Sequence record: AB897757.1
Reading direction: 5' to 3' (one strand)
DNA: 64,000 nucleotides
Source of the DNA: Klebsiella phage K64-1
Positions 1 through 64,000 of this stretch are shown here, in pieces. The translations under genes were made by a program, and so were the position numbers. Numbering within the stretch: the first letter of the stretch is position 1; the number at the start of each line of letters is the position of its first letter. The notes beneath the pieces were generated by a model. It worked only from the letters and a program-made list of their open reading frames with translations, was not told the origin of the DNA and made no database searches.

Positions 1-391
1 TAATTCAGATCGTCATGAAACAGTACTTGCAGTACAGAAATATATTGAAAGCAATCTTCACAAACCGGTTTGGTGTATGGTAAGCACTGAAGAACAACTT
101 GGAATTACTTTTGGTAGTGAAGATGGTTATGTTGCACAATTGATTATGGATTTTAGTACTGAAGAAAAATTCATTTCTTATCGTGATAAAATTTATCAAG
201 CACTATTACGCAGTGGTATCAGTGAAGATCAAGTACCAGAAATTGCACCAATGAAAGATTTTTTCCTTATCCCAAGTGATGAAAAATATGATGCAATGTT
301 TTATAAAATGAATGTGCCAGGTGTTATTGTTGAACATTTTGATGATGATAATACTGAGTGGTTGGACTTGGGTGATGACGAAGACTATTGA
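1..391 (+). CDS. hypothetical protein, 5' partial (first in-window ATG at 77; frame open to window edge)
   Basis: ORF track 77..391; in-frame codons 2..76 have no stop; acidic C-terminus (DLGDDEDY). Confidence 0.4.
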   Translation, partial: NSDRHETVLAVQKYIESNLHKPVWCMVSTEEQLGITFGSEDGYVAQLIMDFSTEEKFISYRDKIYQALLRSGISEDQVPEIAPMKDFFLIPSDEKYDAMFYKMNVPGVIVEHFDDDNTEWLDLGDDEDY

Positions 392-477
392 TGATTTTTA
401 TTGCTTTATAGAAAATACAACTGCACTATTAGAGTATTTTGACAATACTCCTTATCATAAAATATTAGTGCAGGTTT

Positions 478-804
478 ATGATGATCTTTTTTATGAATAT
501 GGTAACTATTTTGATTGGTTCGCACATCTTAGTACATAACTTTTTATTACTTCTTAATAACAAAATACAAATTAACTATATTTTCAGAGATGATCCTTTA
601 TATAAAAATGAAATCTCTGATATATACAAGAATATGACAACTGAAATCTATCATTATTACATGAATAAAAAATTCAAGTGCTATTATATCAAAGGAATTG
701 TAAAACCAGCAAGGTTATATATATGCACTAAAAATGATATGGTGAGTAAAGTTATAGATATCAAAGATTTAAAAGATGAGGTTCTTAGGGATGAGTGGTG
801 TTGA
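478..804 (+). CDS. hypothetical protein (weak; low-complexity N-terminus, start uncertain)
   Basis: ORF track only; alternative ATG at 634. Confidence 0.2.
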   Translation: MMIFFMNMVTILIGSHILVHNFLLLLNNKIQINYIFRDDPLYKNEISDIYKNMTTEIYHYYMNKKFKCYYIKGIVKPARLYICTKNDMVSKVIDIKDLKDEVLRDEWC

Positions 805-1108
805 ATGTGTGAAAAAGAAAATCGAATTTATACAAATGACATGTAAGGTAATTTTCGATTTAGCACACAGTAACAACATGCCAACAGCATTTAAAGAAGT
901 ACTATTATTAAGTACTGAGATTATTTTTGAAGAATATTTCAGTACTAAATTGTATTTATATTATGGTAATTTTTGCAAAATTCACGGCTTTACTATAAGT
1001 AGTTCAAATGGAAGTGTTTATATTTTAACTTCATTTGGTCATTTCGAATTAACAGAAAGTGCTGTAAAAAATTTATATGAATATCCATCAAAAATGAGAG
1101 TAAATTAA
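776..1108 (+). CDS. hypothetical protein
   Basis: ORF track; stop overlaps next start (TAATG at 1106-1110). Confidence 0.3.
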   Translation: MRFLGMSGVECVKKKIEFIQMTCKVIFDLAHSNNMPTAFKEVLLLSTEIIFEEYFSTKLYLYYGNFCKIHGFTISSSNGSVYILTSFGHFELTESAVKNLYEYPSKMRVN

Positions 1109-1308
1109 TGAAAAAATGTTCGTGTTGTGGATCTACTCAAATTGCACGTTTTCGATTAGATTCTGATTGGGCCGTTGGTTGTGGTGATTTCTACCCAGTT
1201 AATGATGATTCAGAATATACTGAAGAACAACTGAAAGATTTTGATAATAGTTGGAGACCAGATTTTGAGTTTCTATATTGTTTGAATTGTAATTCGGTAC
1301 AGGAATGA
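1108..1308 (+). CDS. hypothetical Cys-rich protein (CSCCG ... CLNCNS, zinc-ribbon-like)
   Basis: ORF track; two CxxC-like pairs; ATGA overlap with next gene. Confidence 0.4.
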   Translation: MKKCSCCGSTQIARFRLDSDWAVGCGDFYPVNDDSEYTEEQLKDFDNSWRPDFEFLYCLNCNSVQE

Positions 1309-1574
1309 TTAAACCACATTATCATTGTATTCACTACTTAGGAACGACTATTTGTAATGAATTTACGAAAAATAAACATCATCAATTCAGTACTGTAATA
1401 CGTGATATATTGTTATACATTGAAAAAGAATTAACATTATTTTATAAAAATACCGTATATACTTATTGTAATAAAAAGTACAAAATACTCAATTTATCAT
1501 TTGATGATAGAGGATTTTTATATGTAATGAGTACTGAATATTATACTCATTTGGTTCTGCATACGGATTTATAA
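1305..1574 (+). CDS. hypothetical protein, tandem paralog A
   Basis: ORF track; shares IR.IL..IE.EL..Y core with 1574..1843. Confidence 0.4.
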   Translation: MIKPHYHCIHYLGTTICNEFTKNKHHQFSTVIRDILLYIEKELTLFYKNTVYTYCNKKYKILNLSFDDRGFLYVMSTEYYTHLVLHTDL

Positions 1575-1843
1575 TGAACAAACAATTATTATACTGTAAA
1601 GTGGTTTATTACTTGACTAATTCAGTACTGAATATGAATAACACACATTTTAACTATTCACTATGTATTAGAAGTATTTTAGATAACATAGAAGATGAAC
1701 TAAATGTGTTATATACTGGAAAAACATTCACAAAAAACAATATCCGACACAAATGTAATGGTATTGTTATAACATATGGGCGTATATTTGCTTTATACGG
1801 TATACGTTACACTTGCTATTTTCATAGGGCTAAATTTAAATGA
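1574..1843 (+). CDS. hypothetical protein, tandem paralog B
   Basis: ORF track; similar to 1305..1574; ATGA coupling on both sides. Confidence 0.4.
   Translation: MNKQLLYCKVVYYLTNSVLNMNNTHFNYSLCIRSILDNIEDELNVLYTGKTFTKNNIRHKCNGIVITYGRIFALYGIRYTCYFHRAKFK
1621..1632. repeat. perfect 12-bp palindrome TTCAGTACTGAA (example copy)
   Basis: exact match; other exact copies at 2296-2307, 17426-17437, 23703-23714, 26430-26441, 31466-31477, 33512-33523. Confidence 0.9.
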
Positions 1844-2457
1844 AAACAGATTATTCAAAACTAAGAACAAAACTTTATGGAATTATAGAGGGGCTATCTC
1901 TAATCGATCCAAAGTACTATGAATTGCGTCGTTTACTTGCATTCGCCGAACAATATCATTGTAATACACGAAAAGATGGTTCTGAAGAATTCTCTCATCA
2001 ATTACAAATGCTTGGATTGGCTCTTACGCTTCATGAATCGATGTGTAAGCCGTTTGAAGTATACATGGCAATTGTATCTCATGATTTAATCGAAGACTAT
2101 CCAGAAGCTTCTGAAACGCTTGAGATGTTATTCCCTGATGTAATCCAATATAGTCGCAAACTGGCTAAATTTAAAGATTCAAATACTGATGAAGATTCGT
2201 ACTATGGATACTTTAATCAGCTTTCTAATTGTCAAGTATGTTCAATTGTAAAACTCGTAGATAGAGTGCACAATTTGAGTACCGCACCTGGTGTATTCAG
2301 TACTGAAAAAATTATAAGTTATTGTGATGAAACTGATAAGTATTTCTTTGATATGATAAAAAAATCCAAAGTTATGTTCAATCAACGTTCAGCATATGAA
2401 GTTCTAAAATTCATGTTGAATACCGAAGTCAGTACTATCAGGAATTTATTAAAATGA
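1840..2457 (+). CDS. putative HD-domain phosphohydrolase
   Basis: H...HD...D-like arrangement (FSHQLQM, VSHDLIEDYP, LVDRVHN); 205 aa. Confidence 0.4.
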   Translation: MKTDYSKLRTKLYGIIEGLSLIDPKYYELRRLLAFAEQYHCNTRKDGSEEFSHQLQMLGLALTLHESMCKPFEVYMAIVSHDLIEDYPEASETLEMLFPDVIQYSRKLAKFKDSNTDEDSYYGYFNQLSNCQVCSIVKLVDRVHNLSTAPGVFSTEKIISYCDETDKYFFDMIKKSKVMFNQRSAYEVLKFMLNTEVSTIRNLLK

Positions 2458-2660
2458 AAATAGTTTTAGAATTTGCATTTATTATTTTTGGTTTCATTTG
2501 GTTCACTGCTATTTCAATTTTTGCTGGATATCTCATTATTAAACCGGATATGTTGATTTTCTACTGGATTTTGACTTTAATTGCATTCATCAGTGTTGTC
2601 TATTTGTCTTATAAACTGGTATATCTATATGCAGATGAAATCAAAAAATATAACACTTAG
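2454..2660 (+). CDS. small membrane protein (two predicted TM helices)
   Basis: hydrophobic 68-aa ORF, ATGA overlap with upstream gene. Confidence 0.4.
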   Translation: MKIVLEFAFIIFGFIWFTAISIFAGYLIIKPDMLIFYWILTLIAFISVVYLSYKLVYLYADEIKKYNT

Positions 2661-2693
2661 TTGGTTTTATGTTGAAAAGATTTAAAATCGATA

Positions 2694-2723
2694 TTGAATA
2701 AACATTTCTCCTTGTGATATAAT
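2694..2723 (+). promoter_or_regulatory. sigma70-like early promoter, TTGAAT-18-TGtgaTATAAT
   Basis: -35 ttgaat 2694-2699, extended -10 tgtgatataat 2713-2723, RBS aaggaga 2754-2760 before ATG 2768. Confidence 0.5.
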
Positions 2724-2767
2724 ACTATATGTAAAAGGATTTTACATAAGCACAAGGAGAGTCAAAG

Positions 2768-3496
2768 ATGATAGATAATTTAGCATTTGCATCCGAAATG
2801 GCTAATCAGTTGAACATGAGTAATTTTCAGAGTCTTACACCAGTGATGGCGGAATATGCTGTTGCTCATGCCACCTGTGGTGAACAAGTTGGATCAGCAA
2901 ATTTATTAGCTGATGTATTCAGTACTGTACAAAGTACCCAATACAGTGTTAAAATGTATAGGGATAAGTTTGTACAGTTGTATATGCTTGATGTAATAAA
3001 AGAAGAACCAGAATGGACTGATTTTATTATTGAACGTAGGATTAGTGGTGTTTCTAATCCAGATAAAGATGCAGTACAAGTATTTGATGAAATACTTCAA
3101 GATGTATATAGTAATGAACAAAAAAGTCTAAATCAATACAATGTACGTTCTACCAAGACAGTGCTCGTGGGATTTGATGAAGATGAAGAATATTACTATT
3201 TTCGTTGTACTGAAGTAGATTTTAAATACGAAACTCCCAGTACAGTTAAAGTTAAAGAATTTACTGAAAAGAGTAAAAACTTCAAAAAACATTCTTCTAA
3301 TATTAGTAATATAGTTGGTTATAATAAAGATGGTATTGACATATATCAATGGGTACACCCAAATAACTCAACTTATACCAGATGTTTAAAGAAACGTTAT
3401 AATTTAAAACAAGAAGAATCATTTTATTTTAAGATAAAGAAGCATTCCTATCAACGACCTGATGAATCAGTGTTACTTGGTATGATTTACTTCTGA
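2768..3496 (+). CDS. hypothetical protein
   Basis: 242-aa ORF with its own promoter, strong RBS and terminator. Confidence 0.5.
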   Translation: MIDNLAFASEMANQLNMSNFQSLTPVMAEYAVAHATCGEQVGSANLLADVFSTVQSTQYSVKMYRDKFVQLYMLDVIKEEPEWTDFIIERRISGVSNPDKDAVQVFDEILQDVYSNEQKSLNQYNVRSTKTVLVGFDEDEEYYYFRCTEVDFKYETPSTVKVKEFTEKSKNFKKHSSNISNIVGYNKDGIDIYQWVHPNNSTYTRCLKKRYNLKQEESFYFKIKKHSYQRPDESVLLGMIYF

Positions 3497-3497
3497 T

Positions 3498-3530
3498 TTT
3501 AGTCGTCCAGTACAATATAAGTACTGGACA
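3498..3530 (+). terminator. intrinsic terminator, stem gtccagtac/gtactggac plus T7
   Basis: perfect 9-bp stem, 7-nt loop, T-run 3524-3530; stem arms carry CAGTAC/GTACTG halves of the genome-wide motif. Confidence 0.6.
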
Positions 3531-3547
3531 TTTTTTTAAGGTAAAAA

Positions 3548-3826
3548 ATGAATATATTACAAAAAGTTAATCTATTTGGAAAAGCGTATACAAATGCTTT
3601 TTATGGTATTGATAAACGTTATGAATATGCTAATTTTTTAAATAGAGAAATTGAATTTAGTGGAATGAATAGGTTATTGTCTGGTAAACGTGTAACTATT
3701 GTTTTTAATGGTTATCAGGGATATATTAATCAAATTCGTCATCTAGATGAGAAAATTTTTGCATACGTTTATACTAATAATGGAAATTTATTGATTAATT
3801 TATCTTTTTTGGAATTGATTGAATGA
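3548..3826 (+). CDS. hypothetical protein
   Basis: ORF track; RBS aaggtaaaaaATG. Confidence 0.4.
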   Translation: MNILQKVNLFGKAYTNAFYGIDKRYEYANFLNREIEFSGMNRLLSGKRVTIVFNGYQGYINQIRHLDEKIFAYVYTNNGNLLINLSFLELIE

Positions 3827-4107
3827 AATTAATAGACCAAGTTATTCTTTATAAGAAAGTATTTGATTATATGGAAGATTTTCTTGATGGTACACATTAT
3901 GAATGTTGCATTTATGTTACATGGAAAAAGAATGTAATGGAAATAGAAAAAGCTACCATTTCTAAAATAGTGCGTATAAAAAGCCTTGATACTATTGGTA
4001 CTATTATTGAACTTAATATAGGAAGATATTTTGCATTTTTTGGTGTAAAAGTACCTGAAAACGATTTTGCTCTTATAATTTCATTAGATGATATTGAGTT
4101 TCTTTGA
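3823..4107 (+). CDS. hypothetical protein
   Basis: ORF track; ATGA coupling. Confidence 0.4.
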   Translation: MKLIDQVILYKKVFDYMEDFLDGTHYECCIYVTWKKNVMEIEKATISKIVRIKSLDTIGTIIELNIGRYFAFFGVKVPENDFALIISLDDIEFL

Positions 4108-4136
4108 GTTTTATCTATTTGGTAATATAAAATATT

Positions 4137-4448
4137 ATGGATAAATTACACAAAGCAGTATTATTTTTAAAAGCATATAGCTATGAGTACTTACAAAGTC
4201 ATGGAAAATGGAATGGTAGTTATAAGGATTTATATTCATCTGTTTTTCTTAATGAAGTAAATCTTGTGATATCAGAAGTACAAAAATTATATGAAAGAAA
4301 ACTTGTGCATACGAGATTTGGTATTGGAATTATTATTAGTATATTTTGCTTCACATACGGTTCCTTTTTAGTCGCAATAGAAACAATAGTAGAAGGCAAA
4401 CCACAAACAATAGTATTAGAATTAAGTGAGATATATCTGGATGAATGA
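4137..4448 (+). CDS. hypothetical protein
   Basis: ORF track. Confidence 0.4.
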   Translation: MDKLHKAVLFLKAYSYEYLQSHGKWNGSYKDLYSSVFLNEVNLVISEVQKLYERKLVHTRFGIGIIISIFCFTYGSFLVAIETIVEGKPQTIVLELSEIYLDE

Positions 4449-4713
4449 ACATTTTAATAGAATACAATTAATCACCCAACTTCTACAAATGGTTGATGAC
4501 ACATTTGATGAATTAAAAAATAATCTTATGAATAAGAAAATCAAATGTAAGGTATATATGAATGATGGTGATTATTTCGATATGCGAGAAGTTGAAGTAA
4601 CTGGAATTGTTACTAATATTACTTTATATGAATATGATCTAACTATTACAGTGAAAATCGACGAAGGTCGTGAATATTACGTTTGTAATCAACATATTGA
4701 GGTGGTTGAATGA
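4441..4713 (+). CDS. hypothetical protein (start moved to ATG 4441, 8-nt overlap with upstream gene)
   Basis: ORF 4426..4713; internal Met MNEHF gives a typical coupled start. Confidence 0.35.
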   Translation: MNEHFNRIQLITQLLQMVDDTFDELKNNLMNKKIKCKVYMNDGDYFDMREVEVTGIVTNITLYEYDLTITVKIDEGREYYVCNQHIEVVE

Positions 4714-5855
4714 GTTTAGTAGAAATCTATAATGATTTAATGAATTTAGTACAAAATAATGAAGCATTTGAATATAAAGATCAGCGTTCAATTGGTGGTG
4801 GTTTGTATAGAATCTTTTCTTATCGAATGGCCTCATATACTGATTTCTGTGAACCTAATGCCAAAGAAACACGAGGTTCAATGTGGGAAATCAATGAAGA
4901 TGGTACTATGATTCGTTGTGCAGCCCGTACTATGAATAAATTTTTTAACGCATATGAAAACCCATTCACAATGTTTGATAAAAATATGCTTAGTACTGAA
5001 ATTGAAGTGGCGATGGATAAACGAGACGGTTCTATTATCAGTACTTTCAAGGATAATGACGGAATTATTCGTTGTAAATCTCACACTTCTCTATCTTCAG
5101 AACACGCAATTAATAGTAATGCTATCATGCGTCCTGGTTCTAGTTTATATCAATACGTAGAAGAAGCTGAACTTCAACAATATACCGTGAACCTCGAATA
5201 TACTTCACCTGAATATCGTATTGTATTGCCATATCAGAGCGAGAAACTGACTGTATTGAACGTTCGTCATCGAATCACTGGTGAACTACTGTGTGGTGAA
5301 AAACTGCGTCAGAAGTTTCCTATGCTCGCTATGCGTAGCACTAATATGATAAATGGTCAGAACATTGCAAGTAATTTTCCAATGCGTACTACAGTACTTG
5401 AAACGGTGGAAGCAGTAAAAGGAATGCGAGACATTGAAGGATTTGTGGCAGTACTGAAAGATGGCACAATGTTTAAAATTAAAACAGATTGGTACTGTGC
5501 TTTGCATTTCAATAAGGATAGTATTAATGTTGATTCTAGACTTTACGAATCAGTGCTACAAGGTGCAAGTGATGATTTAAGGCAAATGTTCTCTAATGAT
5601 CAGTATTGTCTTGATAAGATTAAAAGGATGGAAGATTTAGTATTCAGTACTTATAATTCTTTTGAAAAATTTGTTAATGATTTTTACAATGAATTTAAAC
5701 ATTTAGAACGCAAAGAATATGCACTAAAAGTACAGAAACTTCTACCAAAAGAATTAAATCATCAGGGTTATGCTTTCTCTTTGTATAACAATAAACCGTT
5801 TGATTTAAAGGAAAACATGATCAAATACAGCAAAGAAGTATTAAAAGATTTCTAA
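4710..5855 (+). CDS. rnlA: RNA ligase 1 (T4 RnlA family)
   Basis: Blocks recalled from T4 Rnl1: YRIFSY, KFFN.YENPFTM, EGFVAVLKDGTMFKIKTDWY, GASDDLRQMF; 381 aa. Confidence 0.85.
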   Translation: MSLVEIYNDLMNLVQNNEAFEYKDQRSIGGGLYRIFSYRMASYTDFCEPNAKETRGSMWEINEDGTMIRCAARTMNKFFNAYENPFTMFDKNMLSTEIEVAMDKRDGSIISTFKDNDGIIRCKSHTSLSSEHAINSNAIMRPGSSLYQYVEEAELQQYTVNLEYTSPEYRIVLPYQSEKLTVLNVRHRITGELLCGEKLRQKFPMLAMRSTNMINGQNIASNFPMRTTVLETVEAVKGMRDIEGFVAVLKDGTMFKIKTDWYCALHFNKDSINVDSRLYESVLQGASDDLRQMFSNDQYCLDKIKRMEDLVFSTYNSFEKFVNDFYNEFKHLERKEYALKVQKLLPKELNHQGYAFSLYNNKPFDLKENMIKYSKEVLKDF

Positions 5856-5867
5856 TAAGGACACCAA

Positions 5868-6041
5868 ATGAAGAAAAGGAATTCGTGGAGTACTCCTGAA
5901 GAATATAGGAAGATTCAGTGTTATTTTGATACAATACACAAAGAAAAATCCAGTTCAGGAGTACGAAAAAACAGAAATAAAATTAATACTAAAAAGAAAG
6001 AACGTATATATTCTTTAGAACGTCATACAAGAGAAGCTTAA
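5868..6041 (+). CDS. small basic protein (57 aa), sub-threshold ORF
   Basis: ATG 5868 after RBS aagga; K/R-rich; fills the 200-bp gap after rnlA. Confidence 0.3.
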   Translation: MKKRNSWSTPEEYRKIQCYFDTIHKEKSSSGVRKNRNKINTKKKERIYSLERHTREA

Positions 6042-6054
6042 ACGGGAGATTATT

Positions 6055-6267
6055 ATGAAAGTACAAATTCAGCACAGTATTGTTCAAGACATGTCAGTGA
6101 TTAAATTTAACAATCTTCATGATTTTTTTAGATGCATTGACTTTCTCGATAATTCATGTTTAGAATATGATATGATAAAATACAGTTCAGTTCTTGATAC
6201 TGCCAGTATCAGAGTGAATGAATTGGTACTACATAAATTTAGCAAACGTTTCGGGATTGGGAAATGA
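6055..6267 (+). CDS. hypothetical protein
   Basis: ORF track; RBS gggagattattATG. Confidence 0.4.
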   Translation: MKVQIQHSIVQDMSVIKFNNLHDFFRCIDFLDNSCLEYDMIKYSSVLDTASIRVNELVLHKFSKRFGIGK

Positions 6268-6530
6268 TTATGTATGAAAAATTTATATCAACTAAAGAAA
6301 TGCTTCATAGGTTGATTGACGACACTGACAAAGAAATTATAAGGTATTACACTGGAAAAAAAGTACAAATTTCTGCTGAACTCCTTGAGGAACTCGAATT
6401 GGAATCAGAGGATGATATTGTATGGACTATATATGCAGTCACTGTATTCGATGATTGCCTATTTTTTGATGTAGAGCACGGTGATGATGACTTACAAGAT
6501 TTAGAAATAGATGATCTTATATTTCTTTGA
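6264..6530 (+). CDS. hypothetical acidic protein
   Basis: ORF track; ATGA coupling. Confidence 0.4.
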   Translation: MIMYEKFISTKEMLHRLIDDTDKEIIRYYTGKKVQISAELLEELELESEDDIVWTIYAVTVFDDCLFFDVEHGDDDLQDLEIDDLIFL

Positions 6531-6805
6531 GAATAAAAATGAATACAGAACAAGCTATTAGTACTATTGAAAATTTAAATAACACTTTAGTAATTCTTGA
6601 AAAAATTAAGTTAGATGTTGAATATCAAGTACAAAGTTTATTTTTGAATAAGAAAGCATTATTTAAGGATGGCACAGAAGGATATATTGTCGAGTTGTTT
6701 TCTGAAAATGTAAATCTACCTTATGATTTTCAATTTCTTGTTCGTTCAGAAGGTGGATACCTAGATTATATATATGAGGTAAAAGATTTTGTGCAATTCA
6801 TCTAA
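6527..6805 (+). CDS. hypothetical protein
   Basis: ORF track. Confidence 0.4.
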   Translation: MRIKMNTEQAISTIENLNNTLVILEKIKLDVEYQVQSLFLNKKALFKDGTEGYIVELFSENVNLPYDFQFLVRSEGGYLDYIYEVKDFVQFI

Positions 6806-7031
6806 AATAATTAAGCAGTACGAACAATACGTAACTATGCTTGAAACCATGAATGCGGAATTAGAAGTTTCTGCATTTAATTCTGTACATAGATACTTTA
6901 TAAATCGTCCAGTGTTATATAAAAACAATGAATATAAAATTCAAAATGTATTCAGAGATGAAGAAAGTACCATAATTTTCCTACTGTATAATAATATATA
7001 TGTGGATTATACTGAAGTAACGTTTATTTAA
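6789..7031 (+). CDS. hypothetical protein (apparent TTG start after RBS gaggt; alternative ATG 6837)
   Basis: ORF track start 6789 is TTG; gaggt 6776-6780 sits 8 nt upstream. Confidence 0.3.
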   Translation: MCNSSKIIKQYEQYVTMLETMNAELEVSAFNSVHRYFINRPVLYKNNEYKIQNVFRDEESTIIFLLYNNIYVDYTEVTFI

Positions 7032-7042
7032 AGGACATAATA

Positions 7043-7987
7043 ATGCCAACAATCACATTAACAGTTGGACTTCCCGGATGTGGCAAGACTACATGGGCTG
7101 TTGAAGAAGTTCGAAGATCTAAAAGTAAAACAGTAAACATCAACCGTGATGATATGCGAGAAAGCATGGCTGGTTCTCATGAGAATTATAAGTTCAAAGA
7201 TGATAATGAGAAGTACATAGACGCTATGCAAATTGCAGCAGCAGATACAGCAGCAAAGAATAAGTGGAATATTATTATTTCAGATACCAACCTAAAGTTA
7301 TCTATCCGAAAGAAATGGAAAGATTGGGCTAAAGCCAATGGCTATGATTACAAAGAAAAGAATTTCTTTGATGACTTTGTAGCAAAAAGTACTTCAGGTG
7401 CAGATGTTCATCAGTACTTTAAAATTAAAGAATTTGTTAAACAATGCAAATACTATAATTTACTTCGATATAAATCAGTACCGGAATCGGTAATTGATAC
7501 AATGGCAGATTCTTATTTGTATAGTACTATGCCAGTTCCTTCTATTCAGAAAGATTCGATGTACGATTTTAGTACTGAATATATCATTGTTGATATTGAT
7601 GGTACTTTAGCACATAGGGGAAATCGCAACCCATATGATGAAAGTACTGTACTGGAAGATACACCAGATCTTGAAGTTATTCGTTCAGTACTTGCTGAAG
7701 TGAACCATCATAAACGAAAGGTTATTATCATGAGTGGTCGTCATGAAACTTGTGCAAAAGACACTCGTTTGTGGCTTCATGAAAATGGAGTTCCATTTGA
7801 ATATCTTTTTATGCGTTCAGAAAATGATAATCGCCCTGATGATGTGGTAAAATATGAATTGTACATGAAACATGTTGCACCATATTATAATGTTGTTAAA
7901 GTTTATGATGACCGACAACAAGTGTGTACGATGTGGCGTAAATTACTGAAATTGAAAGTTTTTCAAGTTGATTTTGGTAATTTTTGA
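7043..7987 (+). CDS. pseT: polynucleotide 5'-kinase/3'-phosphatase (T4 PseT family)
   Basis: Walker A GLPGCGKTT, NINRDD, ISDTNL, HAD motif DIDGTLA, C-terminal DDVVK..DDR; collinear with T4 Pnk. Confidence 0.85.
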   Translation: MPTITLTVGLPGCGKTTWAVEEVRRSKSKTVNINRDDMRESMAGSHENYKFKDDNEKYIDAMQIAAADTAAKNKWNIIISDTNLKLSIRKKWKDWAKANGYDYKEKNFFDDFVAKSTSGADVHQYFKIKEFVKQCKYYNLLRYKSVPESVIDTMADSYLYSTMPVPSIQKDSMYDFSTEYIIVDIDGTLAHRGNRNPYDESTVLEDTPDLEVIRSVLAEVNHHKRKVIIMSGRHETCAKDTRLWLHENGVPFEYLFMRSENDNRPDDVVKYELYMKHVAPYYNVVKVYDDRQQVCTMWRKLLKLKVFQVDFGNF

Positions 7988-9900: not shown

Positions 9901-10200
9901 ATGAATAAAATAAATGTTGCATACCATACTTGGGAAATGCTTTTTGACTTAACTGATGATTTTTATCCAAGTAACTATTCAAATGTTTATTATGAAGTAT
10001 ATAAAAATTATTATTCAGAACTTAATAATTATGTCAAAGGAACTAAAGTTGAACTTATATTATTATATTCAGTGAGTCCTTCAAAACTAGGAACTGTTAA
10101 TTCAATAAATGTGACACCATTTGGATTACACTTTGAAATAGAACTGTGCCATAATTCAGTAATCGTTTTCCGTGAATATTGTGAAATAAAAGAATATTAA
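9901..10200 (+). CDS. hypothetical protein (ATG 9901 preferred over TTG 9898)
   Basis: ORF track 9898..10200. Confidence 0.35.
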   Translation: MNKINVAYHTWEMLFDLTDDFYPSNYSNVYYEVYKNYYSELNNYVKGTKVELILLYSVSPSKLGTVNSINVTPFGLHFEIELCHNSVIVFREYCEIKEY

Positions 10201-11342: not shown

Positions 11343-12089
11343 ATGAGACATTATTTACAAGTAACAGTACCGGATGAAAAGGAATTATATATTGTTGGTG
11401 ATATTCATGGTAATGCAAGACTGTGGGATTTAACTAAAAAAGAATTTGGAATCACTGATAATGATGTAGTATTCAGCCTAGGTGATATTGTGGATCGTGG
11501 TAAAAATAATTCCAAATTACTATTTGAATTTCTTTTTCAAGACAATCGTTATATGATTAACGGTAATCACGAATCCATGCTCGTTGATGGATTGACTAAT
11601 CGTGAATGGTATCATTGTCATATGAGTAATGGTGGAGACAAACTATACGAAGAACTTGGTCATACTGGTGTAGAATTCTTTGCTCAGTACTTAAAAGATT
11701 TACCCATGATCATAGAAATACATTATCGTGGTATGAAAATTGGATTAGTACACGGTTGCTGTCCTTTACGTTATACAGACTGGAACGAATTTTTAACTGA
11801 TAGTTCAACGTTATCTCCAAAAATTGTTGAAGAATGCATTTGGTCCAGAAATGATTTTGACTATGCAAAACAAAACAACACTTATCATTCACCAAGAATT
11901 TCCAATATTGATTATGTCATTTCAGGACATTCCCCTGTATTTGATCCACTAATTTATGGAAACCGATGGTGGATTGATTCACAATTTAGTACTGGAGATT
12001 TGACTGTAGTACAACCAAACAGTGGAAAACTGAGATATTTTAGAAGAGAAAAGGATGCATATTCTTTTGATCGTAAACGTGGTTATTAA
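11343..12089 (+). CDS. Ser/Thr protein phosphatase (calcineurin-like metallophosphoesterase)
   Basis: GDIHG, GDIVDRG, GNHE motifs in canonical order. Confidence 0.7.
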   Translation: MRHYLQVTVPDEKELYIVGDIHGNARLWDLTKKEFGITDNDVVFSLGDIVDRGKNNSKLLFEFLFQDNRYMINGNHESMLVDGLTNREWYHCHMSNGGDKLYEELGHTGVEFFAQYLKDLPMIIEIHYRGMKIGLVHGCCPLRYTDWNEFLTDSSTLSPKIVEECIWSRNDFDYAKQNNTYHSPRISNIDYVISGHSPVFDPLIYGNRWWIDSQFSTGDLTVVQPNSGKLRYFRREKDAYSFDRKRGY

Positions 12090-18364: not shown

Positions 18365-18385
18365 TTTAGTACTGAATAATTAAAA

Positions 18386-45459: not shown

Positions 45460-45464
45460 TTTAA

Positions 45465-49046: not shown

Positions 49047-49095
49047 GTCATAATTCCTTTTAAATTAAAAATCTATAAAGTATTTAATAAAAAAT

Positions 49096-49120
49096 AAAGC
49101 CCAAGCTGGGCTTTATTTTT
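49096..49120. terminator. terminator hairpin (agccca/tgggct plus T-run)
   Basis: 6-bp stem plus tttattttt. Confidence 0.45.
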
Positions 49121-49126
49121 AATCTT

Positions 49127-50881
49127 TTATGCACCTCTAATATAAGCTTGTATTTGTCTATTTCTTGTATCCATAGATACTAAGTTGATAGTAATAGTAG
49201 AACCATCAGATGTTGTACTAACAGATACTTGAACCCCAGTAGGTGTATTTGTACTTGGACCCCATACATTGTCTGGATATGTATCTAATTTCGATGATAT
49301 CATATTAATTACGGGTACGGTGCTTTCCCATGAACACAATAGAGGTACTGTAAAATATTCAGCTCTTCCACCTATAGTATCTCTTGCTGATATCTCAAGA
49401 ACTATTTTTTGTGGAATCATATATTGTGTCATTGCTGGTCTGCTTAATGATAATGTTAATGTTCCATTTGATGCTGCTGGCGGTAATGTTCCAGTAGATG
49501 TATTCCCCATTTTAACCAAACCAGATGATTTTTGATATGTCCCTGTATTAACTATATCAGGTAAACCATAGTTTCCGGTTATTACTTTATTAGCTATAGT
49601 TACTTCTTTCATATAGCCTAAGTTTCCACCCGAAAACGAATTTCCTGAAGCAATAAGGATTTTTCCAGTACCACCAGCACATATAATATCATAATCTGGT
49701 GTTAATACACCAGTACCACCGTCATCTACACCAGAAGTAAATCTATTACCATTTAATAAAATTATCCCAGAATCATTAATTAATATATTAGCCCCATTAT
49801 TTGTATTAGAGGATATTCTTCCGTTTCGTTGTATTGAGCAGGTTGTAACTGATACACTTGCACCATCGGCAACAGTAATTCCTGCATATCCGTTACGGTC
49901 AATCAATTCCCCAGTAATTACATTACCTACTGATTGATAAAAATAAAAACCATCGGTTCCATTCCATTCTACTCGGCACCCAACCCATGCATTATTATTA
50001 GCTCCTGTTCGCATCGCAATGCCACGAGAGACTTGTGCATTTATTGTACAATCGACTGCACGAGAGTCAATCCAGTCTTGCATTGCTGTATTATTACCAC
50101 TAAAATTACAACCACGAGCATAAACGGTTGCTACATACCCACTAGTTCTTCCTAAACCAATACCCCATCTATAAAATCCACATTTTTCGAATCTACACCC
50201 AGAAACTTGTGATGTAGCATTCATAGAACCCACTGTGTTGTTTCTACCATCAAATACAATATTGTCGAAAGTATGTCTCCCTGAAAGAACAAAAATACCA
50301 GGCGAACCAGATGCTAATCTAATAACAGTACCGCAATTATTAAATGATGCATCATTCGAAACAGTGTATGGTTTTCTACTTTGACCATACATATTGAATC
50401 CTGATGGTAATGTACATACATTACTATGTACATATATACCTTTAGATGGTGGATAATAAATTGACATTAATCCAGAATTTATTGCTTTTTGTAAAGCATA
50501 ATCAACATTAATTTCAATCCCAACTACATTTTTTATGTTGTAAATATCATCAGATGTCATAAAATTATATATAGAATTTGCGGTTGTTGTTGAAGTAGAA
50601 ACAGAAATTTTTCTTAATGTTAAAGTGCCATTAGTAGTTAATACAGTCATAATTTCGCCAGTACTATCTATACTCCATGATGAAATTGTTCCAGTTTCTA
50701 AACTTGAAATAGTTCCCCATATATATTGAGTATTTGGATCAATAAGAAGTTTTAAACCATTAACTGAAAGATTTTGTTTTATAAAATCTATTTCAGAATA
50801 ATTTATTGAATAAGTTTTAGATAAAATTTCTCTAGCGATTTCAGTAGAAGTTGAACCTTTAGGTTGTATAAAATTTCCCAT
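49127..50881 (-). CDS. tailspike protein, anchor family A (MGNFIQPKGSTSTE), right-handed beta-helix
   Basis: PbH1-like repeats (GCRFEKCGF..GCNFSGN..CTINAQ..GCRVEWNG); translationally coupled to the upstream gene (9-nt gap). Confidence 0.75.
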   Translation of the reverse strand: MGNFIQPKGSTSTEIAREILSKTYSINYSEIDFIKQNLSVNGLKLLIDPNTQYIWGTISSLETGTISSWSIDSTGEIMTVLTTNGTLTLRKISVSTSTTTANSIYNFMTSDDIYNIKNVVGIEINVDYALQKAINSGLMSIYYPPSKGIYVHSNVCTLPSGFNMYGQSRKPYTVSNDASFNNCGTVIRLASGSPGIFVLSGRHTFDNIVFDGRNNTVGSMNATSQVSGCRFEKCGFYRWGIGLGRTSGYVATVYARGCNFSGNNTAMQDWIDSRAVDCTINAQVSRGIAMRTGANNNAWVGCRVEWNGTDGFYFYQSVGNVITGELIDRNGYAGITVADGASVSVTTCSIQRNGRISSNTNNGANILINDSGIILLNGNRFTSGVDDGGTGVLTPDYDIICAGGTGKILIASGNSFSGGNLGYMKEVTIANKVITGNYGLPDIVNTGTYQKSSGLVKMGNTSTGTLPPAASNGTLTLSLSRPAMTQYMIPQKIVLEISARDTIGGRAEYFTVPLLCSWESTVPVINMISSKLDTYPDNVWGPSTNTPTGVQVSVSTTSDGSTITINLVSMDTRNRQIQAYIRGA

Positions 50882-50890
50882 ATTTTAATC

Positions 50891-53230
50891 CTATTTTTGT
50901 AATTGTTTTTCAATTCTATCAAGTTTTCTACGCTGATAGGCCATTTCCACTGCTAAACACTCTTCCATTCTGAGCATATATATTTCTCCCTCGGCTTTAT
51001 ATGGAGATAATACATTACCATTTTGATCATATGTTTCTTCTGATTCTATCCATGATTCATAAGTTATTAAGCCATAATCTTGCCAATTTAATCCTGCATT
51101 TTCTAACACTGATTTAATTTTTTGTGCTATATACCCAACATGCCATCTTGCATCGGTTATCCCTTTTACATTGATTGCAGCTTTCATTTTCCACATATTA
51201 AATTCAACATTTTCCCATGCATCAAGAAGTTCATCTGGTATTTTTTGTATATTGGATTTGTAATTTTCATCTGAAACAACAGTTACTGGATTTTGAACAT
51301 ATAAATTGTTAACCGTCAATGATGGTGAACCTATTGAATAAACAGATGTTGTTGTTGGTGTTATTGCATTACTACCAAAGACCCATTCTTGTGAACCATT
51401 AAATGAACGTATATATAATCTTCCTGAGCTATCAACCAAAATCCTAGCCATTGATGTTGTTTTGTCACCATTAGAATAAAAATCAATACTTTTTGAACCG
51501 GCGGTTCCGTTATAAATTCCAAGCTGAATACTACCATTGGTTTTTATTTGTCCGGTATTAGTAAAAGACAAAATATCTGTAGGTGTAACACTATAATCAG
51601 TTGATGTAGTGTAACTGACAACCAATTCACCATTATCATTCACAGTTAATATATGATTTTTATTGCATATATTTTTATTCGAAATTGAAATCTTTGAAGT
51701 TATATTTCTATTTGTATATGTATTAAATGTGCAATTAATTACCAAATAAGAATCATCCAGTACAGTTGCGGTGTCTGAATCGATATTATACGATGGTCCT
51801 TTATTGTATGTGTTAAGACTGTAATACGGGTTAATAAAATGGTTATTATCAAAAATGATGTTTTTACTGTTTCCTGTTATTTTAATTGATTTAACGTCAG
51901 TACTTGAATAAGCAGTTAAGCGATTCGTTGTTACTTGGCGGCAATTTTTGAAATTTATATTATAACAAGCTTCGATATAACCTAATCGATAATTGGTATC
52001 AACTGCCGAACCATTTTGTGAAAATATAGTTCCATAAAAATTAACATTAAAACAGTTTTTTAAATTATAACATTTAGCTTTTAAATTATGAGTTTCTATA
52101 TGCCCACCAAATACATTTATTGCATGATGTGGATAAGTACTATTAATTGATGAAGCATTGAATAAAATTGCATTATCAGCATTCGAGGTTTCAATTGTTG
52201 GTCTAATAAACGTTATTTGGTTTGAATCATCTCCACTACCATCACCAGTTGTACCACCATTTGCTGGGCCAGTATAAACTTCAAAAGTAAATCCATAAGA
52301 AACATCAGATGTTGATTGCATATTTGAAATATTTTGTATAAAGATATCTTCAAAAGTACTATCAAATAATAAATTAGCTACTACACCTCGTGCAAATCCA
52401 GAAAAACCTACACAACGCCAATTACTATGTACCACTGGCAGCCAGGCAGTTGAACTTCCTAGTACTGCACCAGTTTGATATGAAGCACCAGATCTAAATC
52501 CAATATTAATTAAATTTATTTTACATTGTGTTGCAGTAAAAGCATTTTGACCTTGTGTAATTGGTTGTAGAACAGTAGAAGTCATACCAGAACCAATTAA
52601 AGTATAACATGTACTCAAAGATCCAGTACTGTTTAAATATTTTGTGAATTTCATTTCAGTACTGTACTGAAAAACTCCAGGAGGAAAAACGATTGGCATT
52701 ACACCGTACATTTGTGAATTCACCGCTGTTTGTGGAATATATGATTGTACATAAGAAATAGCAGCATCCAATGCAGGAGACCAATCCCAAGTTTCCATAT
52801 CATTTAAATTTGGTTTACTTGTAATTAAATGTTGGAATTCCATAATAGACACAAAATTGCTATTCATATAACCAGCAACTGATTCGATTGATGATAAAGA
52901 ATCATTAATTTTTTTTCTTTGGTATCCTATTTTAAGGGAAGTATCTGGATTACTTAATCCTATTTTTAATAAAGTATAAGTACTGAAATCAGTGGTTAAT
53001 ATCAAATTACCATCACTATTCAGATTCCATGTTTGTGGATTTCCTTTAGCATTCCCAACATAAAAAACCATCTCAGAAATAGGATCAAAAACAACAATAT
53101 ATGTATCAATTAATATTTCAGTACTTAAATATTCAACTTCGGAAAATTTTAATCCCAAACTTAATGCTATGCTATTTTTATTTGTTTCTTTAGAAACAGA
53201 GCCTTTTGGTTGAATTAATCCGTTTATCAT
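50891..53230 (-). CDS. tailspike protein, anchor family A, with C-terminal intramolecular chaperone (peptidase S74-like) domain
   Basis: N-terminus MINGLIQPKGSVSKETN; C-terminal VSDENYKSNIQKIP ... YGLITYESWIE ... LRMEECLAVEMAYQRRKL resembles the endosialidase/T5 L-fibre autocleaving chaperone. Confidence 0.75.
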   Translation of the reverse strand: MINGLIQPKGSVSKETNKNSIALSLGLKFSEVEYLSTEILIDTYIVVFDPISEMVFYVGNAKGNPQTWNLNSDGNLILTTDFSTYTLLKIGLSNPDTSLKIGYQRKKINDSLSSIESVAGYMNSNFVSIMEFQHLITSKPNLNDMETWDWSPALDAAISYVQSYIPQTAVNSQMYGVMPIVFPPGVFQYSTEMKFTKYLNSTGSLSTCYTLIGSGMTSTVLQPITQGQNAFTATQCKINLINIGFRSGASYQTGAVLGSSTAWLPVVHSNWRCVGFSGFARGVVANLLFDSTFEDIFIQNISNMQSTSDVSYGFTFEVYTGPANGGTTGDGSGDDSNQITFIRPTIETSNADNAILFNASSINSTYPHHAINVFGGHIETHNLKAKCYNLKNCFNVNFYGTIFSQNGSAVDTNYRLGYIEACYNINFKNCRQVTTNRLTAYSSTDVKSIKITGNSKNIIFDNNHFINPYYSLNTYNKGPSYNIDSDTATVLDDSYLVINCTFNTYTNRNITSKISISNKNICNKNHILTVNDNGELVVSYTTSTDYSVTPTDILSFTNTGQIKTNGSIQLGIYNGTAGSKSIDFYSNGDKTTSMARILVDSSGRLYIRSFNGSQEWVFGSNAITPTTTSVYSIGSPSLTVNNLYVQNPVTVVSDENYKSNIQKIPDELLDAWENVEFNMWKMKAAINVKGITDARWHVGYIAQKIKSVLENAGLNWQDYGLITYESWIESEETYDQNGNVLSPYKAEGEIYMLRMEECLAVEMAYQRRKLDRIEKQLQK
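52655..52671. repeat. compound 17-bp palindrome TTCAGTAC-T-GTACTGAA
   Basis: two overlapping motif halves around a central T, inside the tailspike gene 50891..53230. Confidence 0.85.
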
Positions 53231-61681: not shown

Positions 61682-61709
61682 TTAATAAAATAAATAGGAT
61701 TTATCAATT

Positions 61710-63869
61710 ATGTCATTAACTAATTTAAACTCAACAAACTCAAAAAGTATGTTGATTAATTCAGGAACATTTAGAAGTGGGGTGTATATAACCTCACCTA
61801 ATCAATTTCTATCATATACTGATAATAATGGAATGAATGCTGCATATTATTATACTGGTGTTTTGCCATATACAACTTCATCAAATACCCCAACATCAGA
61901 TAGTCCATTATGGAAAATATTATACATCGCCGATAAGTTTTCTTATCTTAAAACCGATATTGTACCAATTACAAGTGGTGGTACTGGTGCAAACACTGCA
62001 CAAAATGCAAGAACTAATTTAGGATTAGGAACTGCAAATACTCCTACATTTTCAAATATTGAATTAAGTTCTTTAACACCATATATAGATTTTCATTTTA
62101 ATAACAGTTCATCTGATTATACTACTAGGTTAATAGAGAATTCAAGCGGTGAATTAACATTAGTTGGTTCATTAAGATTGAATAACAATTTGGTGGTTAC
62201 AGGAAACACCACACTAGTAAATGCATTACCTATAGCAAGTGGTGGTACTGGTTCTAATACAGTTGCTGCCGCCAATACTGCATTTGGATTAGGAACAGGA
62301 GACAGTCCAACATTCCAAGGATTAAATATTCAATACGTTGGAAATGAACCAAGAATAAATTTGAATAATTCAGTGTTTAGATCTAATGCAGGTAATGCAC
62401 TGGTTATAAGTGCTTTACAAGGAATTTATTTAAGGCCAGCAGGTGATAATGTATCAACACCACAAATTTTATATTCAACGGCTGGTACATTGACAATGAC
62501 TGGTACTAATGTAAGTATAAGTGGTAGTTTGACACTTGGTACTGCATTGTCTATATCAAGTGGTGGTACCGGAGCAATCGATGCACCAACAGCAAGAACT
62601 AATTTAGGATTAGGAACATCAGCTACTGTAAATACTGGAACATCTGGTGCAACGATACCTTTATTAAATGCGGCAAATACATGGTCATCTACACAAACAA
62701 TACAGGGAAATCTTGCAGTAGGTACTGTTGGTACTACTTCTACTATTACCCTTGGAGGTTCTTCATTTGCACGAGATAATGGTTCAAAAGCATTAATAAT
62801 CACTTCATCCTCGGCGTCAGATGCATCACCTGCCGGAATTTATTTAAGACCAATGGGCGATACTGTAAGTACTGTACAAATTTATGGTAATTCAACTGGA
62901 TGGTCTATTAATGGAAATACGTTAGTTTCTGGTACTTTGTCCAACACCGGTGCTGCTAGTTTTCTTAATAATGTGTATACTGTGGATAGTACTGGATTTT
63001 ATTCATCTACTACAGGTAAAGTACTAGGTTCATCAACTAACCCTTGGTCAACAAATTATAGTAATTCAGTTACATCAGGTACTTCAACTGCATTATCATT
63101 AAATGGTACATCAAATAGTATAAATTTACAAATTGGAGGCACAACATTAATTCAACTTGGAACATCTGGATTTGTATCAAACAACAATGTAAGTTATCGT
63201 TCTAAAAATACTACTGGAACATCATTGGATATTTGTAAAATTGATACTAGTAATATTACACAAATTGGTAATATTACTATACCAACTAACATAAATTCTT
63301 CAGTACATCCAACAGTAAACGTGGCTGGTACTTCTTATACACTTTATAGTACTGGAAACAAACCTACGGTAAGTGCATTTAGAGCAAGTTATTTAACCAC
63401 CGCTGGTTCTGATTCTAAACAAACATTAACTGCATCTAATACACCACAGACTTTATTGGTCAATACCATAACTGCTGCATCGAGTATCATAACTGCTAAC
63501 ACCAGTACTGGAACATTCTTATCAAATGTCACACAAGGAATGATGTTATGTATAAGTGCTCAAATCATTAGAGAAGTAACTGGTGGTGGTGATGTTTATT
63601 GGATGATGTTTTTGGAAACAAGTCCTGATGGAACGACATGGACACCAGTTACAGGTTCAAATAGAATAGTTACATTAAGTTCTAGTACTACAAATGAAAT
63701 GAAACAAGTAGATTTTTCAGTAGCAATACAATCTACAGCGGGAACATATCTTAGAATTCGACATGCATGTACAGATAGTACTAAAACCGTTTCTGTAATT
63801 TCTAAAGATTCGTTATTTGCAGGTGTTCCAATTTCATCTGGTTTGATAGTAAGTTTCTTAACTATATAA
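61710..63869 (+). CDS. tail fibre protein, anchor family B, with phage tail-fibre repeats (SGGTGA..A..AR.NLGLG)
   Basis: three copies of the [PS]I[AST]SGGTG[AS] ... NLGLGT repeat typical of distal tail fibres; family-B N-terminus. Confidence 0.75.
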   Translation: MSLTNLNSTNSKSMLINSGTFRSGVYITSPNQFLSYTDNNGMNAAYYYTGVLPYTTSSNTPTSDSPLWKILYIADKFSYLKTDIVPITSGGTGANTAQNARTNLGLGTANTPTFSNIELSSLTPYIDFHFNNSSSDYTTRLIENSSGELTLVGSLRLNNNLVVTGNTTLVNALPIASGGTGSNTVAAANTAFGLGTGDSPTFQGLNIQYVGNEPRINLNNSVFRSNAGNALVISALQGIYLRPAGDNVSTPQILYSTAGTLTMTGTNVSISGSLTLGTALSISSGGTGAIDAPTARTNLGLGTSATVNTGTSGATIPLLNAANTWSSTQTIQGNLAVGTVGTTSTITLGGSSFARDNGSKALIITSSSASDASPAGIYLRPMGDTVSTVQIYGNSTGWSINGNTLVSGTLSNTGAASFLNNVYTVDSTGFYSSTTGKVLGSSTNPWSTNYSNSVTSGTSTALSLNGTSNSINLQIGGTTLIQLGTSGFVSNNNVSYRSKNTTGTSLDICKIDTSNITQIGNITIPTNINSSVHPTVNVAGTSYTLYSTGNKPTVSAFRASYLTTAGSDSKQTLTASNTPQTLLVNTITAASSIITANTSTGTFLSNVTQGMMLCISAQIIREVTGGGDVYWMMFLETSPDGTTWTPVTGSNRIVTLSSSTTNEMKQVDFSVAIQSTAGTYLRIRHACTDSTKTVSVISKDSLFAGVPISSGLIVSFLTI

Positions 63870-63872
63870 TAA

Positions 63873-63905
63873 TAAAAAAAAGCCGCAATTTATGTTGCGG
63901 CTTTT
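63873..63905 (+). terminator. intrinsic terminator (agccgcaa/ttgcggct plus T7)
   Basis: 8-bp stem, 6-nt loop, T-run. Confidence 0.65.
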
Positions 63906-63956
63906 TTTACATTATGATATTATTACATCATTCTAAATCCATTTAAAAATCTTTTA

Positions 63957-63985
63957 TTGACAAAGGATCTATTTTAAGTTAAAAT
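63957..63985 (+). promoter_or_regulatory. sigma70-like promoter TTGACA-17-TAAAAT
   Basis: ttgaca 63957-63962, taaaat 63980-63985. Confidence 0.4.
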
Positions 63986-64000
63986 GCAAAAATAACTATC

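Follow-up and report, generated by a model that had tools for sequence, protein, structure and literature searches.

Why does one stretch of phage DNA hold so many copies of a single palindromic hexamer? The question is raised by 64,000 nucleotides of Klebsiella phage K64-1 (AB897757.1; this whole stretch is called the window below), in which the word AGTACT occurs 158 times (2.5 per kb). The copies are dispersed from position 1 to position 64,000. An initial annotation had proposed a roughly tenfold enrichment. This figure holds against dinucleotide-preserving shuffles of the window (n = 100), which give 15.4 ± 3.7 copies and at most 24 (10-fold), but the excess is lower against base composition (21.6 copies expected; 7.3-fold) and against synonymous-codon shuffles (3.1-fold). 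An order-3 Markov model expects 69 copies; this model already absorbs part of the signal. The annotation's count of 26 copies in positions 1 to 7700 was nearly exact (27 were found), but its extrapolation to about 200 copies in the window was too high. AGTACT is the sole enriched palindromic hexamer in the window, and the runner-up, GGTACC, reaches 2.1-fold. Among hexamers of any kind, the two most over-represented ones are CAGTAC and GTACTG.

The AGTACT excess is a DNA-level signal

Is the excess a property of the DNA or of the encoded proteins? Genes in the window were called with a simple gene finder based on open reading frames (ORFs), whose calls agree broadly with the annotation of the related Klebsiella phage Muenster. 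By these calls, 147 copies of AGTACT lie in genes, where 94 are read as AGT-ACT (Ser-Thr), 11 as xAG-TAC-Txx and 42 as xxA-GTA-CTx (x-Val-Leu), and the other 11 lie outside gene calls. The caller missed a NUDIX ORF that holds the copies at 26717 and 26813. When synonymous codons were shuffled within each gene, the three frames retained 33.9, 2.1 and 11.2 copies, and the total was 47 ± 5.7 with a maximum of 62. Thus, each reading frame is 3-5-fold above the codon-shuffle null. It had been supposed that a stop codon bars the word from the third frame; the hexamer does use this frame (11 copies), and only the full 12-mer described below is barred there. In OU509535.1, a complete close relative of 347,546 bp on which the genome-wide figures of this study are based, the copies in the three frames number 394, 75 and 236.

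The word is as dense between genes as within them. In the window, its density is 2.7 per kb in non-coding DNA and 2.45 per kb in coding DNA. In the complete relative outside the terminal repeat, the corresponding values are 2.54 and 2.39 per kb, and the density is uniform along genes. As the initial annotation had reported, copies are found in intergenic DNA. They lie at 18368-18373 (tttAGTACTgaa, between the stop codon of the ClpP gene and a terminator hairpin), at 19201-19206 (tccAGTACTaca) and at 29757-29762 (tatAGTACTgta), and a further copy lies at 3520-3525, immediately 5′ of a ribosome-binding site.

Among the Ser-Thr codon pairs, only AGT-ACT is inflated, with 94 copies against 24 expected from codon usage in other contexts. 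Three dipeptides are over-represented, namely Ser-Thr (1.74-fold), Val-Leu encoded by GTA-CTN (1.49-fold) and Gln-Tyr encoded by CAG-TAC (1.68-fold), while the reversed pair Thr-Ser is at 1.04-fold. Since the three enriched dipeptides are the three frame readings of AGTACT, it is the DNA word that bends the protein sequence and not the reverse. Moreover, the flanks are symmetric under reverse complement (77 CAGTACT and 76 AGTACTG in the window) even though 70% of the coding DNA of the window is on one strand, which points to the recognition of duplex DNA and not of RNA.

A preference at the level of protein or translation, either for a Ser-Thr motif or for an AGT-ACT codon pair that suits the phage's own tRNAs, could draw on the 94 of 147 in-gene copies that read AGT-ACT and on the tRNA-Ser and tRNA-Thr encoded by phage RaK2 (PMC3622015). 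However, the codon-shuffle null is exceeded 4-5-fold in the other two frames, the intergenic density equals the coding density and rises to 14.5 per kb in the non-coding part of the terminal repeat, neither the other Ser-Thr codon pairs nor the Thr-Ser dipeptide is enriched, and the T4 orthologues of the same genes have no excess. As a sole cause, a protein- or codon-level preference is ruled out by the frame, intergenic and codon-pair counts, and I regard this explanation as exceedingly improbable. The proposal of the initial annotation, a selected DNA-level signal and not chance or a Phe-Ser-Thr-Glu preference, withstands the codon-shuffle, codon-pair and intergenic tests.

How far does the word extend beyond its six bases? 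Seven perfect copies of the 12-bp palindrome TTCAGTACTGAA were found exactly where they had been reported, at 1621-1632, 2296-2307, 17426-17437, 23703-23714, 26430-26441, 31466-31477 and 33512-33523, as was the compound copy TTCAGTACTGTACTGAA at 52655-52671, which consists of one AGTACT and an overlapping GTACTG. The statement that AGTACT usually lies inside the 12-mer was overstated: the perfect 12-mer holds 7 of the 158 hexamers and CAGTACTG holds 36, while 107 copies have no palindromic extension and only nine have arms of at least 3. These last two counts argue against a general hairpin-promoting element. The longer palindromes occur as often as independent half-sites would produce them, with 36 against 37 for CAGTACTG and 7 against 7.0 for the 12-mer. 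The half-sites in the window are symmetric and independent.

The reported flank bias toward ttc and gaa is real. Position -1 is C in 49% of the copies and position +1 is G in 48%; relative to background, C at -1 is at 3.1-fold, A at 0.61-fold and G at 0.2-0.4-fold. Genome-wide in the complete relative, the half-site flank TTC is enriched 8.8-fold. The strength of the flanks differs among genera, and the AGTACT core is constant. The GTAC centre is strict: words that differ at one of the four inner positions reach 0.24-1.7-fold of expectation, and all of them lie close to baseline but for AGGACT/AGTCCT, whose deficit a lower Markov order already explains. The outer A and T are tolerant (GGTACT/AGTACC 3.6-fold, TGTACT/AGTACA 2.1-fold). 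No helical periodicity was found in the dispersed sites, only the 3-base periodicity that the frame bias leads one to expect.

Distribution among RaK2-like jumbo phages

How widely is the excess shared? The first 20 kb of the window are 98% identical to the Klebsiella jumbo phages Muenster and RaK2 (genus Alcyoneusvirus, about 346 kb), and the window as a whole is of the RaK2/Muenster type, corresponding to about 57.9-123 kb of Muenster apart from 1-kb insertions or deletions. OU509535.1 has 945 copies of AGTACT against 117 expected and 31 perfect 12-mers against 0.04. Their spacing is Poisson-like, with a coefficient of variation (CV) of 1.08. Regions syntenic to the window were taken from 121Q (Asteriusvirus, Escherichia coli), GAP32 (Mimasvirus, Cronobacter), Munch (Salmonella) and fHe-Yen9-04 (Eneladusvirus, Yersinia). 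These four have 69-80 copies per 25 kb against 8.5 expected, and XbC2 (Mimasvirus, with Xanthomonas as the recorded host) has 55 against 6.4. Thus, an 8-9-fold excess is found across five genera. The DNA ligases of the enriched relatives are 52-60% identical to that of the window, and those of the next phages in the collection drop to 32%.

The excess is absent from three controls, namely from T4 (7 copies against 17 expected, in a region with homologues of several of the same enzymes), from a Kuttervirus (3 against 14.6) and from E. coli K-12 (11 against 12.6, or 0.22 per kb). In T4 and the Kuttervirus the word is in fact depleted, and the window phage, enriched 7-10-fold, does not show such avoidance of a ScaI-type site. 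The density in the phage (2.7 per kb) is about 12 times that of host DNA, for which E. coli stands here.

Some individual sites have been retained over long distances. In orthologous genes compared between genera at 52-57% protein identity, 13 of 40, 7 of 37, 8 of 36 and 9 of 35 window sites are at an identical aligned position (20-33%), where about 0.1 would be expected. Where a Ser-Thr pair is conserved, its codons read AGTACT in 71-86% of cases, while the codon usage of the window would predict about 11%. Most sites are not shared in position between genera, so there has been turnover around a maintained density. These results show that the abundance of AGTACT is a lineage trait that has been maintained over a long time.

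The window begins with small accessory genes and enzymes on the plus strand, among them RNA ligase, polynucleotide kinase, DNA ligase, ClpP, NAD salvage enzymes and NrdD/G, and continues with a tail-fibre/tailspike cluster on both strands. The lower density that had been noticed in the tailspike genes was confirmed: the minus-strand part of this cluster at 44001-52000 holds 7 copies over 8 kb, while about 12 are found per 4 kb elsewhere. In the complete relative, the lowest densities are found in two minus-strand genes with zero copies, in minus-strand genes of the tail-fibre region (G+C about 0.42) and in a few others. The low density in the G+C-richer genes of the tail-fibre region fits recently acquired DNA that has yet to accumulate the word. 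The whole cluster at 40200-64000 aligns poorly to close relatives, and about 41-42 of the 64 kb align at megablast stringency. Together with the low density at 44-52 kb, this is consistent with recent exchange of receptor-binding modules.

Two other differences or peculiarities of the locus were seen. In Muenster, a 1-kb EDxHD homing-endonuclease gene (positions 23732-24739 of the Muenster locus) separates the adenylyltransferase/NUDIX gene from that for nicotinate phosphoribosyltransferase; the window has no such gene at about 23720-23800, and a mobile gene thus shows a presence/absence polymorphism. A small ORF at 1108-1308 is the counterpart of Muenster gene 146, for which the annotation gives HHpred matches to zinc ribbons of the TFIIS/RPB9 type, an unusual fold for a phage accessory gene.

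AGTACT and the promoters of the terminal repeat

Are all copies equal? In one 20-kb stretch of the complete relative, the density triples to 76-82 copies per 10 kb. In Muenster, PhageTerm predicts this stretch to be the direct terminal repeat; it is packed with tiny genes, each with a promoter-like spacer. In its non-coding DNA, where the word reaches 14.5 per kb, 21 pairs of AGTACT lie exactly 20 bp apart. The consensus of the predicted promoters is aAAAAGTACTTGACa-N-ATTCAGTACTGTATAATg, in which the upstream AGTACT shares its last T with the -35 element TTGACA and the downstream copy ends 1-2 nucleotides before the -10 element. A promoter scan found 14 perfect (12/12) sigma-70 consensus sites in the terminal repeat. 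Among 24 strong plus-strand promoters of Muenster, 18 have AGTACT just before the -10 element and 11 have it at the -35 edge as well. In the E. coli phage fEgEco12, the word lies 1-2 nucleotides before the -10 element in 15 of 21 strong promoters, and its repeat (20,993 bp) holds 138 copies against 16 in the next 9 kb.

I scanned IMG/VR for the promoter form that bears AGTACT, and 38 stretches were returned. Only RaK2-like jumbo contigs among them are rich in the word (7-23-fold). The same promoter layout was found in other jumbo contigs, where the base after the word is either G or T. Since this base varies, it is AGTACT itself that is constant and not an extended -10 TG.

The placement is also conserved in sequence. 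Between Muenster and the complete relative, whose repeats diverge by 4.7%, the -10-proximal AGTACT has no change in 126 bases. Changes were counted at 22 of 189 bases in the spacer, 8 of 126 in the -10 hexamer and 7 of 126 in the upstream AGTACT. Over non-coding DNA, AGTACT bases diverge by 4.3% and other bases by 7.0% (p = 0.011). The promoter copies of AGTACT are therefore under purifying selection, and the -10-proximal copy is the most conserved element of the promoter. Two hallmarks of an operator are thus seen in the terminal repeat of the relatives, though not in the window: a dyad site over the -35 and -10 elements at a fixed position, and conservation above that of the neighbouring bases. 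Within the window, neither 20-bp pairs nor AGTACT-flanked promoters were found, and all 158 copies are of the dispersed type. The 'middle promoter' motif TGAAAC, which has been reported for CBB and GAP32, showed no link with AGTACT. According to the CBB paper, the RpoD-like promoters of that phage are 'preceded by an UP-like element'.

Further observations were made in the terminal repeat of Muenster. Its positions 1-1300 have no annotated gene and hold 14 copies of AGTACT (about 11 per kb), the first of them 48 bp from the predicted genome end. Perfect palindromes of 18-22 bp centred on AGTACT, such as GGGAATCAGTACTGATTCCC, lie at 3924-3941, 10079-10102, 11630-11647 and 14541-14562. They are about 30 nucleotides 5′ of start codons, adjoining ribosome-binding sites, and could be operators or hairpins of the 5′ untranslated region (with a GUAC loop). 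The repeat also encodes a full-length H-NS-like protein (Muenster 5709-6209; fEgEco12 6069-6551). It has the N-terminal oligomerisation domain PF22470 and a C-terminal part like the H-NS DNA-binding domain, with a KGN/RGN loop replacing QGR. By tblastn, it was found only in records of the Alcyoneusvirus and Asteriusvirus type and, as one weak match, in an unclassified jumbo contig. The protein may be a phage silencer or counter-silencer for a genome of 31% G+C. It is unlikely to be the protein that reads AGTACT, being a binder of the minor-groove type with a narrow distribution, while the word is a strict hexamer.

What reads the word, and what it resembles

What, then, recognizes AGTACT? The explanation that I favour, tentatively and as a leading candidate that may well prove wrong, is that AGTACT, with the degenerate extended consensus TTCAGTACTGAA, is a word of duplex DNA that has been kept across the RaK2-like jumbo phages as the recognition site of a dimeric sequence-specific protein, most likely made by the phage. 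I infer that the word is read by a protein and not by an enzyme, that this reader is phage-encoded, and that its binding represses. The terminal repeat is probably the first DNA to enter the cell, and AGTACT there is part of the predicted early sigma-70 promoters. As the word ends 1-2 nucleotides 5′ of the -10 element, often with another copy 20-22 bp further upstream that abuts the -35 element, a bound protein would cover the contacts of RNA polymerase (sigma-70) and could act as an early-gene switch, most simply a shut-off. The about 800 other copies, Poisson-like over the remaining chromosome, may be low-affinity single sites that mark the DNA or load or titrate the same factor. A dimeric binding protein fits better than a strict-hexamer enzyme with the dyad symmetry, the strict centre and the graded, independent half-sites, with a 12-bp footprint whose flanks vary in strength among genera around a fixed core, and with two copies about two helical turns apart over polymerase contacts. 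Among the mechanisms listed in the initial annotation, a binding site is the one favoured here, a modification target keeps some standing, and a general hairpin-promoting role is argued against.

Several points weigh against a dimeric reader. No such protein was found in the part of the proteome examined, and Pfam scans of 10 conserved small proteins of the terminal repeat gave no DNA-binding domain. An HTH_37 protein of CBB was rejected as the reader, as it has no detectable homologue in Alcyoneusvirus, and so was a 'DNA binding protein' encoded beside the gene for the Dam-type methyltransferase, which is a mobile HNH homing endonuclease and is not conserved. The promoters were predicted from the sigma-70 consensus and do not come from transcription-start mapping. 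A palindrome of six bases whose core is strict also suits a type II methyltransferase or nuclease, and that some 800 weak sites inside genes bring a benefit is a postulate. When close relatives that diverge by about 2.9% are compared, the bases of dispersed in-gene sites are conserved no better than those of control hexamers. In the window's own sites, third positions change at 2.4% against 5.5%, yet the per-base variability equals that of the control hexamers, so that site-by-site selection on the window copies is undemonstrated on this short timescale. A likeness to the half-sites of LexA or TrpR was set aside: their spacing and orientation misfit the promoter sequences of the terminal repeat, on which no dedicated pattern search was run.

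Other explanations assign the word to an enzyme. AGTACT could be the target of an orphan DNA methyltransferase of the phage; methylation at the -35 and -10 edges would then couple the early promoters to virion versus new DNA, and the dispersed copies would be an epigenetic self-mark or protective mark. I consider this credible but doubtful. The strict palindromic core of six bases has an adenine in each half, and RaK2 encodes an N6-adenine methyltransferase of the Dam family (PF05869), which is kept in Asteriusvirus (63% identity) and in Erwinia jumbo phages (45%); however, the Dam-type family classically methylates GATC. For RaK2, two methyltransferases have been reported, and its DNA was cut by methylation-insensitive enzymes alone (PMC3622015); the cyanobacterial palindrome HIP1 has been tied to orphan methylases (PMC4390886). 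On the other hand, methylation alone leaves the advantage of more sites unexplained, the graded enrichment of near-cognate words and a 12-bp flank preference that drifts between genera are unlike a strict-hexamer enzyme, and the complete avoidance of 19 other palindromic hexamers implies no reliance on a broad protective modification. It is unlikely that the word is instead a site of enzymatic DNA transactions, acted on by a nicking or cleaving enzyme, a type II topoisomerase or a Chi-like attenuator of an exonuclease, and aiding replication, recombination, decatenation or the survival of ends. Type II topoisomerases make a 4-base stagger, as would a cut at A^GTAC^T, and the dyad symmetry around a 4-bp core agrees with this. 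The even, Poisson-like distribution (CV 1.08), the 14 copies in the left-most 1.3 kb of the terminal repeat and the T4-type replication and recombination enzymes of the phage, including the DNA ligase and polynucleotide kinase in the window, also speak for such a site. But the fixed placement at the -35 and -10 edges and the invariant copy would be unexplained, and no candidate enzyme has been tied to the word. Chi, the FtsK-orienting polar sequences (KOPS) and similar signals are polar, whereas no strand polarity was found for AGTACT, a palindrome with symmetric flanks.

Might the word have no function in the phage, or be read by the host? A by-product of a lineage-specific bias in mutation or repair, for example a very-short-patch-like correction toward AGTACT, seems quite improbable. 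It would agree with the turnover of sites, about 70-80% of which are unshared in position between genera, with the dispersed copies being not measurably more conserved than control words between close relatives, and with the lowest density in G+C-richer, recently acquired-looking genes of the tail-fibre region and a few others, which resembles amelioration. That pattern is equally expected under selection, however, and a repair bias explains neither the fixed promoter positions nor the invariance of the copy there. Furthermore, a donor pool should be visible as a depleted one-mismatch neighbour, and none was found (AATACT/AGTATT 1.07-fold, AGCACT/AGTGCT 1.67-fold). It is very improbable that the copies are weak sites for the host nucleoid-occlusion protein SlmA, whose activation or soaking up by replicating phage DNA would block host division. 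The core A4-G5-Y6-R7-C8-T9 of the SlmA-binding site (SBS, GTGAGTACTCAC) does fit AGTACT, and SlmA tolerates variation at some positions (PMC3020112). Most hosts of the phage group are Enterobacterales, and T at position 2 is mildly preferred (1.25-fold). Nevertheless, the required G at position 1 is at only 0.77-fold, with T preferred there (1.47-fold), and the required purine at position 3 is replaced by C (3.07-fold; G 0.37-fold, A 0.61-fold). The SBS flanks are depleted (GTG 7 against 16.4, GTA 16 against 35), there are 2 full SBS matches in 347 kb, and the picture is the same in all five genera. In addition, SlmA sites of E. coli lie outside promoters (PMC3020112), and XbC2, recorded on Xanthomonas, is still enriched. 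Since the flanks fail the requirements of SlmA, the phage copies are not SlmA sites, although weak binding is possible.

A second word of these genomes behaves in the opposite way. GCGC is absent from the window (36 expected), from the complete 347-kb relative (224 expected) and from every RaK2-like locus checked, whereas T4 has 64 copies against 51 expected and E. coli has 7.1 per kb. The total loss across phages with different hosts suggests that the site is lethal, and a phage-encoded GCGC-specific nuclease used against host DNA is a possibility. The initial annotation had contrasted the AGTACT excess with the usual avoidance of restriction sites, and the contrast holds within the same DNA: 23 of the 64 palindromic hexamers have zero copies in the window, and 19 have zero copies in the 347-kb relative. 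In the latter, CTTAAG is at 0 against 117 expected, and CAGCTG, CTGCAG, GAGCTC and GCATGC are each at 0 against 26. The DNA of fEgEco12 is reported to be cut by AflII (CTTAAG), so part of the avoidance is genus-specific. The 347-kb relative also has 16 plus-strand and 4 minus-strand copies of another word, the Chi octamer of the E. coli type (GCTGGTGG), with less than one expected on each strand; the window has a single copy, on the minus strand at 49671. The most enriched hexamers include TGGTGG, GGTGGT and CTGGTG, for which the glycine codons GGT-GGT are partly responsible.

It is conceivable, though unlikely, that AGTACT and GCGC make up a two-word, modification-free system of self and non-self. 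AGTACT would be a positive self-mark, read by a dedicated phage protein with a second task, the shut-off of early promoters in the terminal repeat, and GCGC would be a negative mark, the target of a phage nuclease that destroys host DNA. Whichever explanation holds, the effect of the word is large enough to reshape hundreds of proteins at the level of their amino-acid sequences. Its excess spans at least five genera, whose hosts are major pathogens and whose members are candidates for phage therapy. To name the reader would open the control of early genes in phages of about 350 kb. High AGTACT with zero GCGC is also a signature for metagenomes; it singled out the jumbo contigs among the 38 IMG/VR pattern matches. 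ScaI is predicted to cut the phage DNA about 950 times unless the site is modified.

To my knowledge, no hyper-abundant word of this kind has been described for a phage lineage. No paper mentioning AGTACT enrichment or the promoter form AGTACTTGAC was found in the open-access literature, and the excess is apparently undescribed. Hyper-abundant words of other kinds, namely Chi, the uptake sequences, KOPS and HIP1, each led to DNA-handling machinery. The closest analogue is HIP1 (GCGATCGC) of cyanobacteria, which is likewise a short, perfect palindrome, over-represented many-fold in and between genes, conserved by lineage with evidence of selection, and suspected to have orphan methyltransferases as partners (PMC4390886, PMC5861425). 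As with HIP-type words, the excess of AGTACT is seen against both composition- and codon-aware nulls, in all frames and in non-coding DNA, and throughout a lineage with shared sites. The HIP1 word itself is not involved, as CGATCG has no copy in the window. Unlike HIP1, AGTACT is a hexamer with an A+T-rich core, belongs to a virus and not to a cell, has Poisson-like and not quasi-periodic spacing, and takes a fixed place in predicted sigma-70 promoters.

The SBS of E. coli and its relatives is also a 12-bp palindrome with the identical AGTACT core, scattered over the chromosome, and it is read by the dimeric helix-turn-helix protein SlmA (PMC3020112). The phage word differs in its flank consensus, which is TTC and not GTG (G1 and the purine at position 3 are absent or depleted), in its number (about 950 copies per 347 kb against about 50 per 4.6 Mb in E. 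coli) and in its occurrence in promoters. The operators of dimeric phage repressors, such as those of the lambda/P22 type, and LexA boxes share with it the dyad symmetry, the two sites per promoter about two helical turns apart, the overlap with contacts of RNA polymerase and the graded preference for half-sites. Repressor operators are limited to a few promoters, however, whereas more than 80% of the AGTACT copies lie within genes far from promoters. Chi, the DNA uptake sequences and KOPS resemble AGTACT as selected, over-represented short words that run throughout coding DNA and bias codon and amino-acid usage. These words are asymmetric, orientation-dependent and cellular, with RecBCD, the uptake machinery and FtsK as their readers, while AGTACT is palindromic and viral. 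Finally, the hexamer is identical to the ScaI site, but phages normally lose restriction sites, and here the site has been multiplied eightfold.

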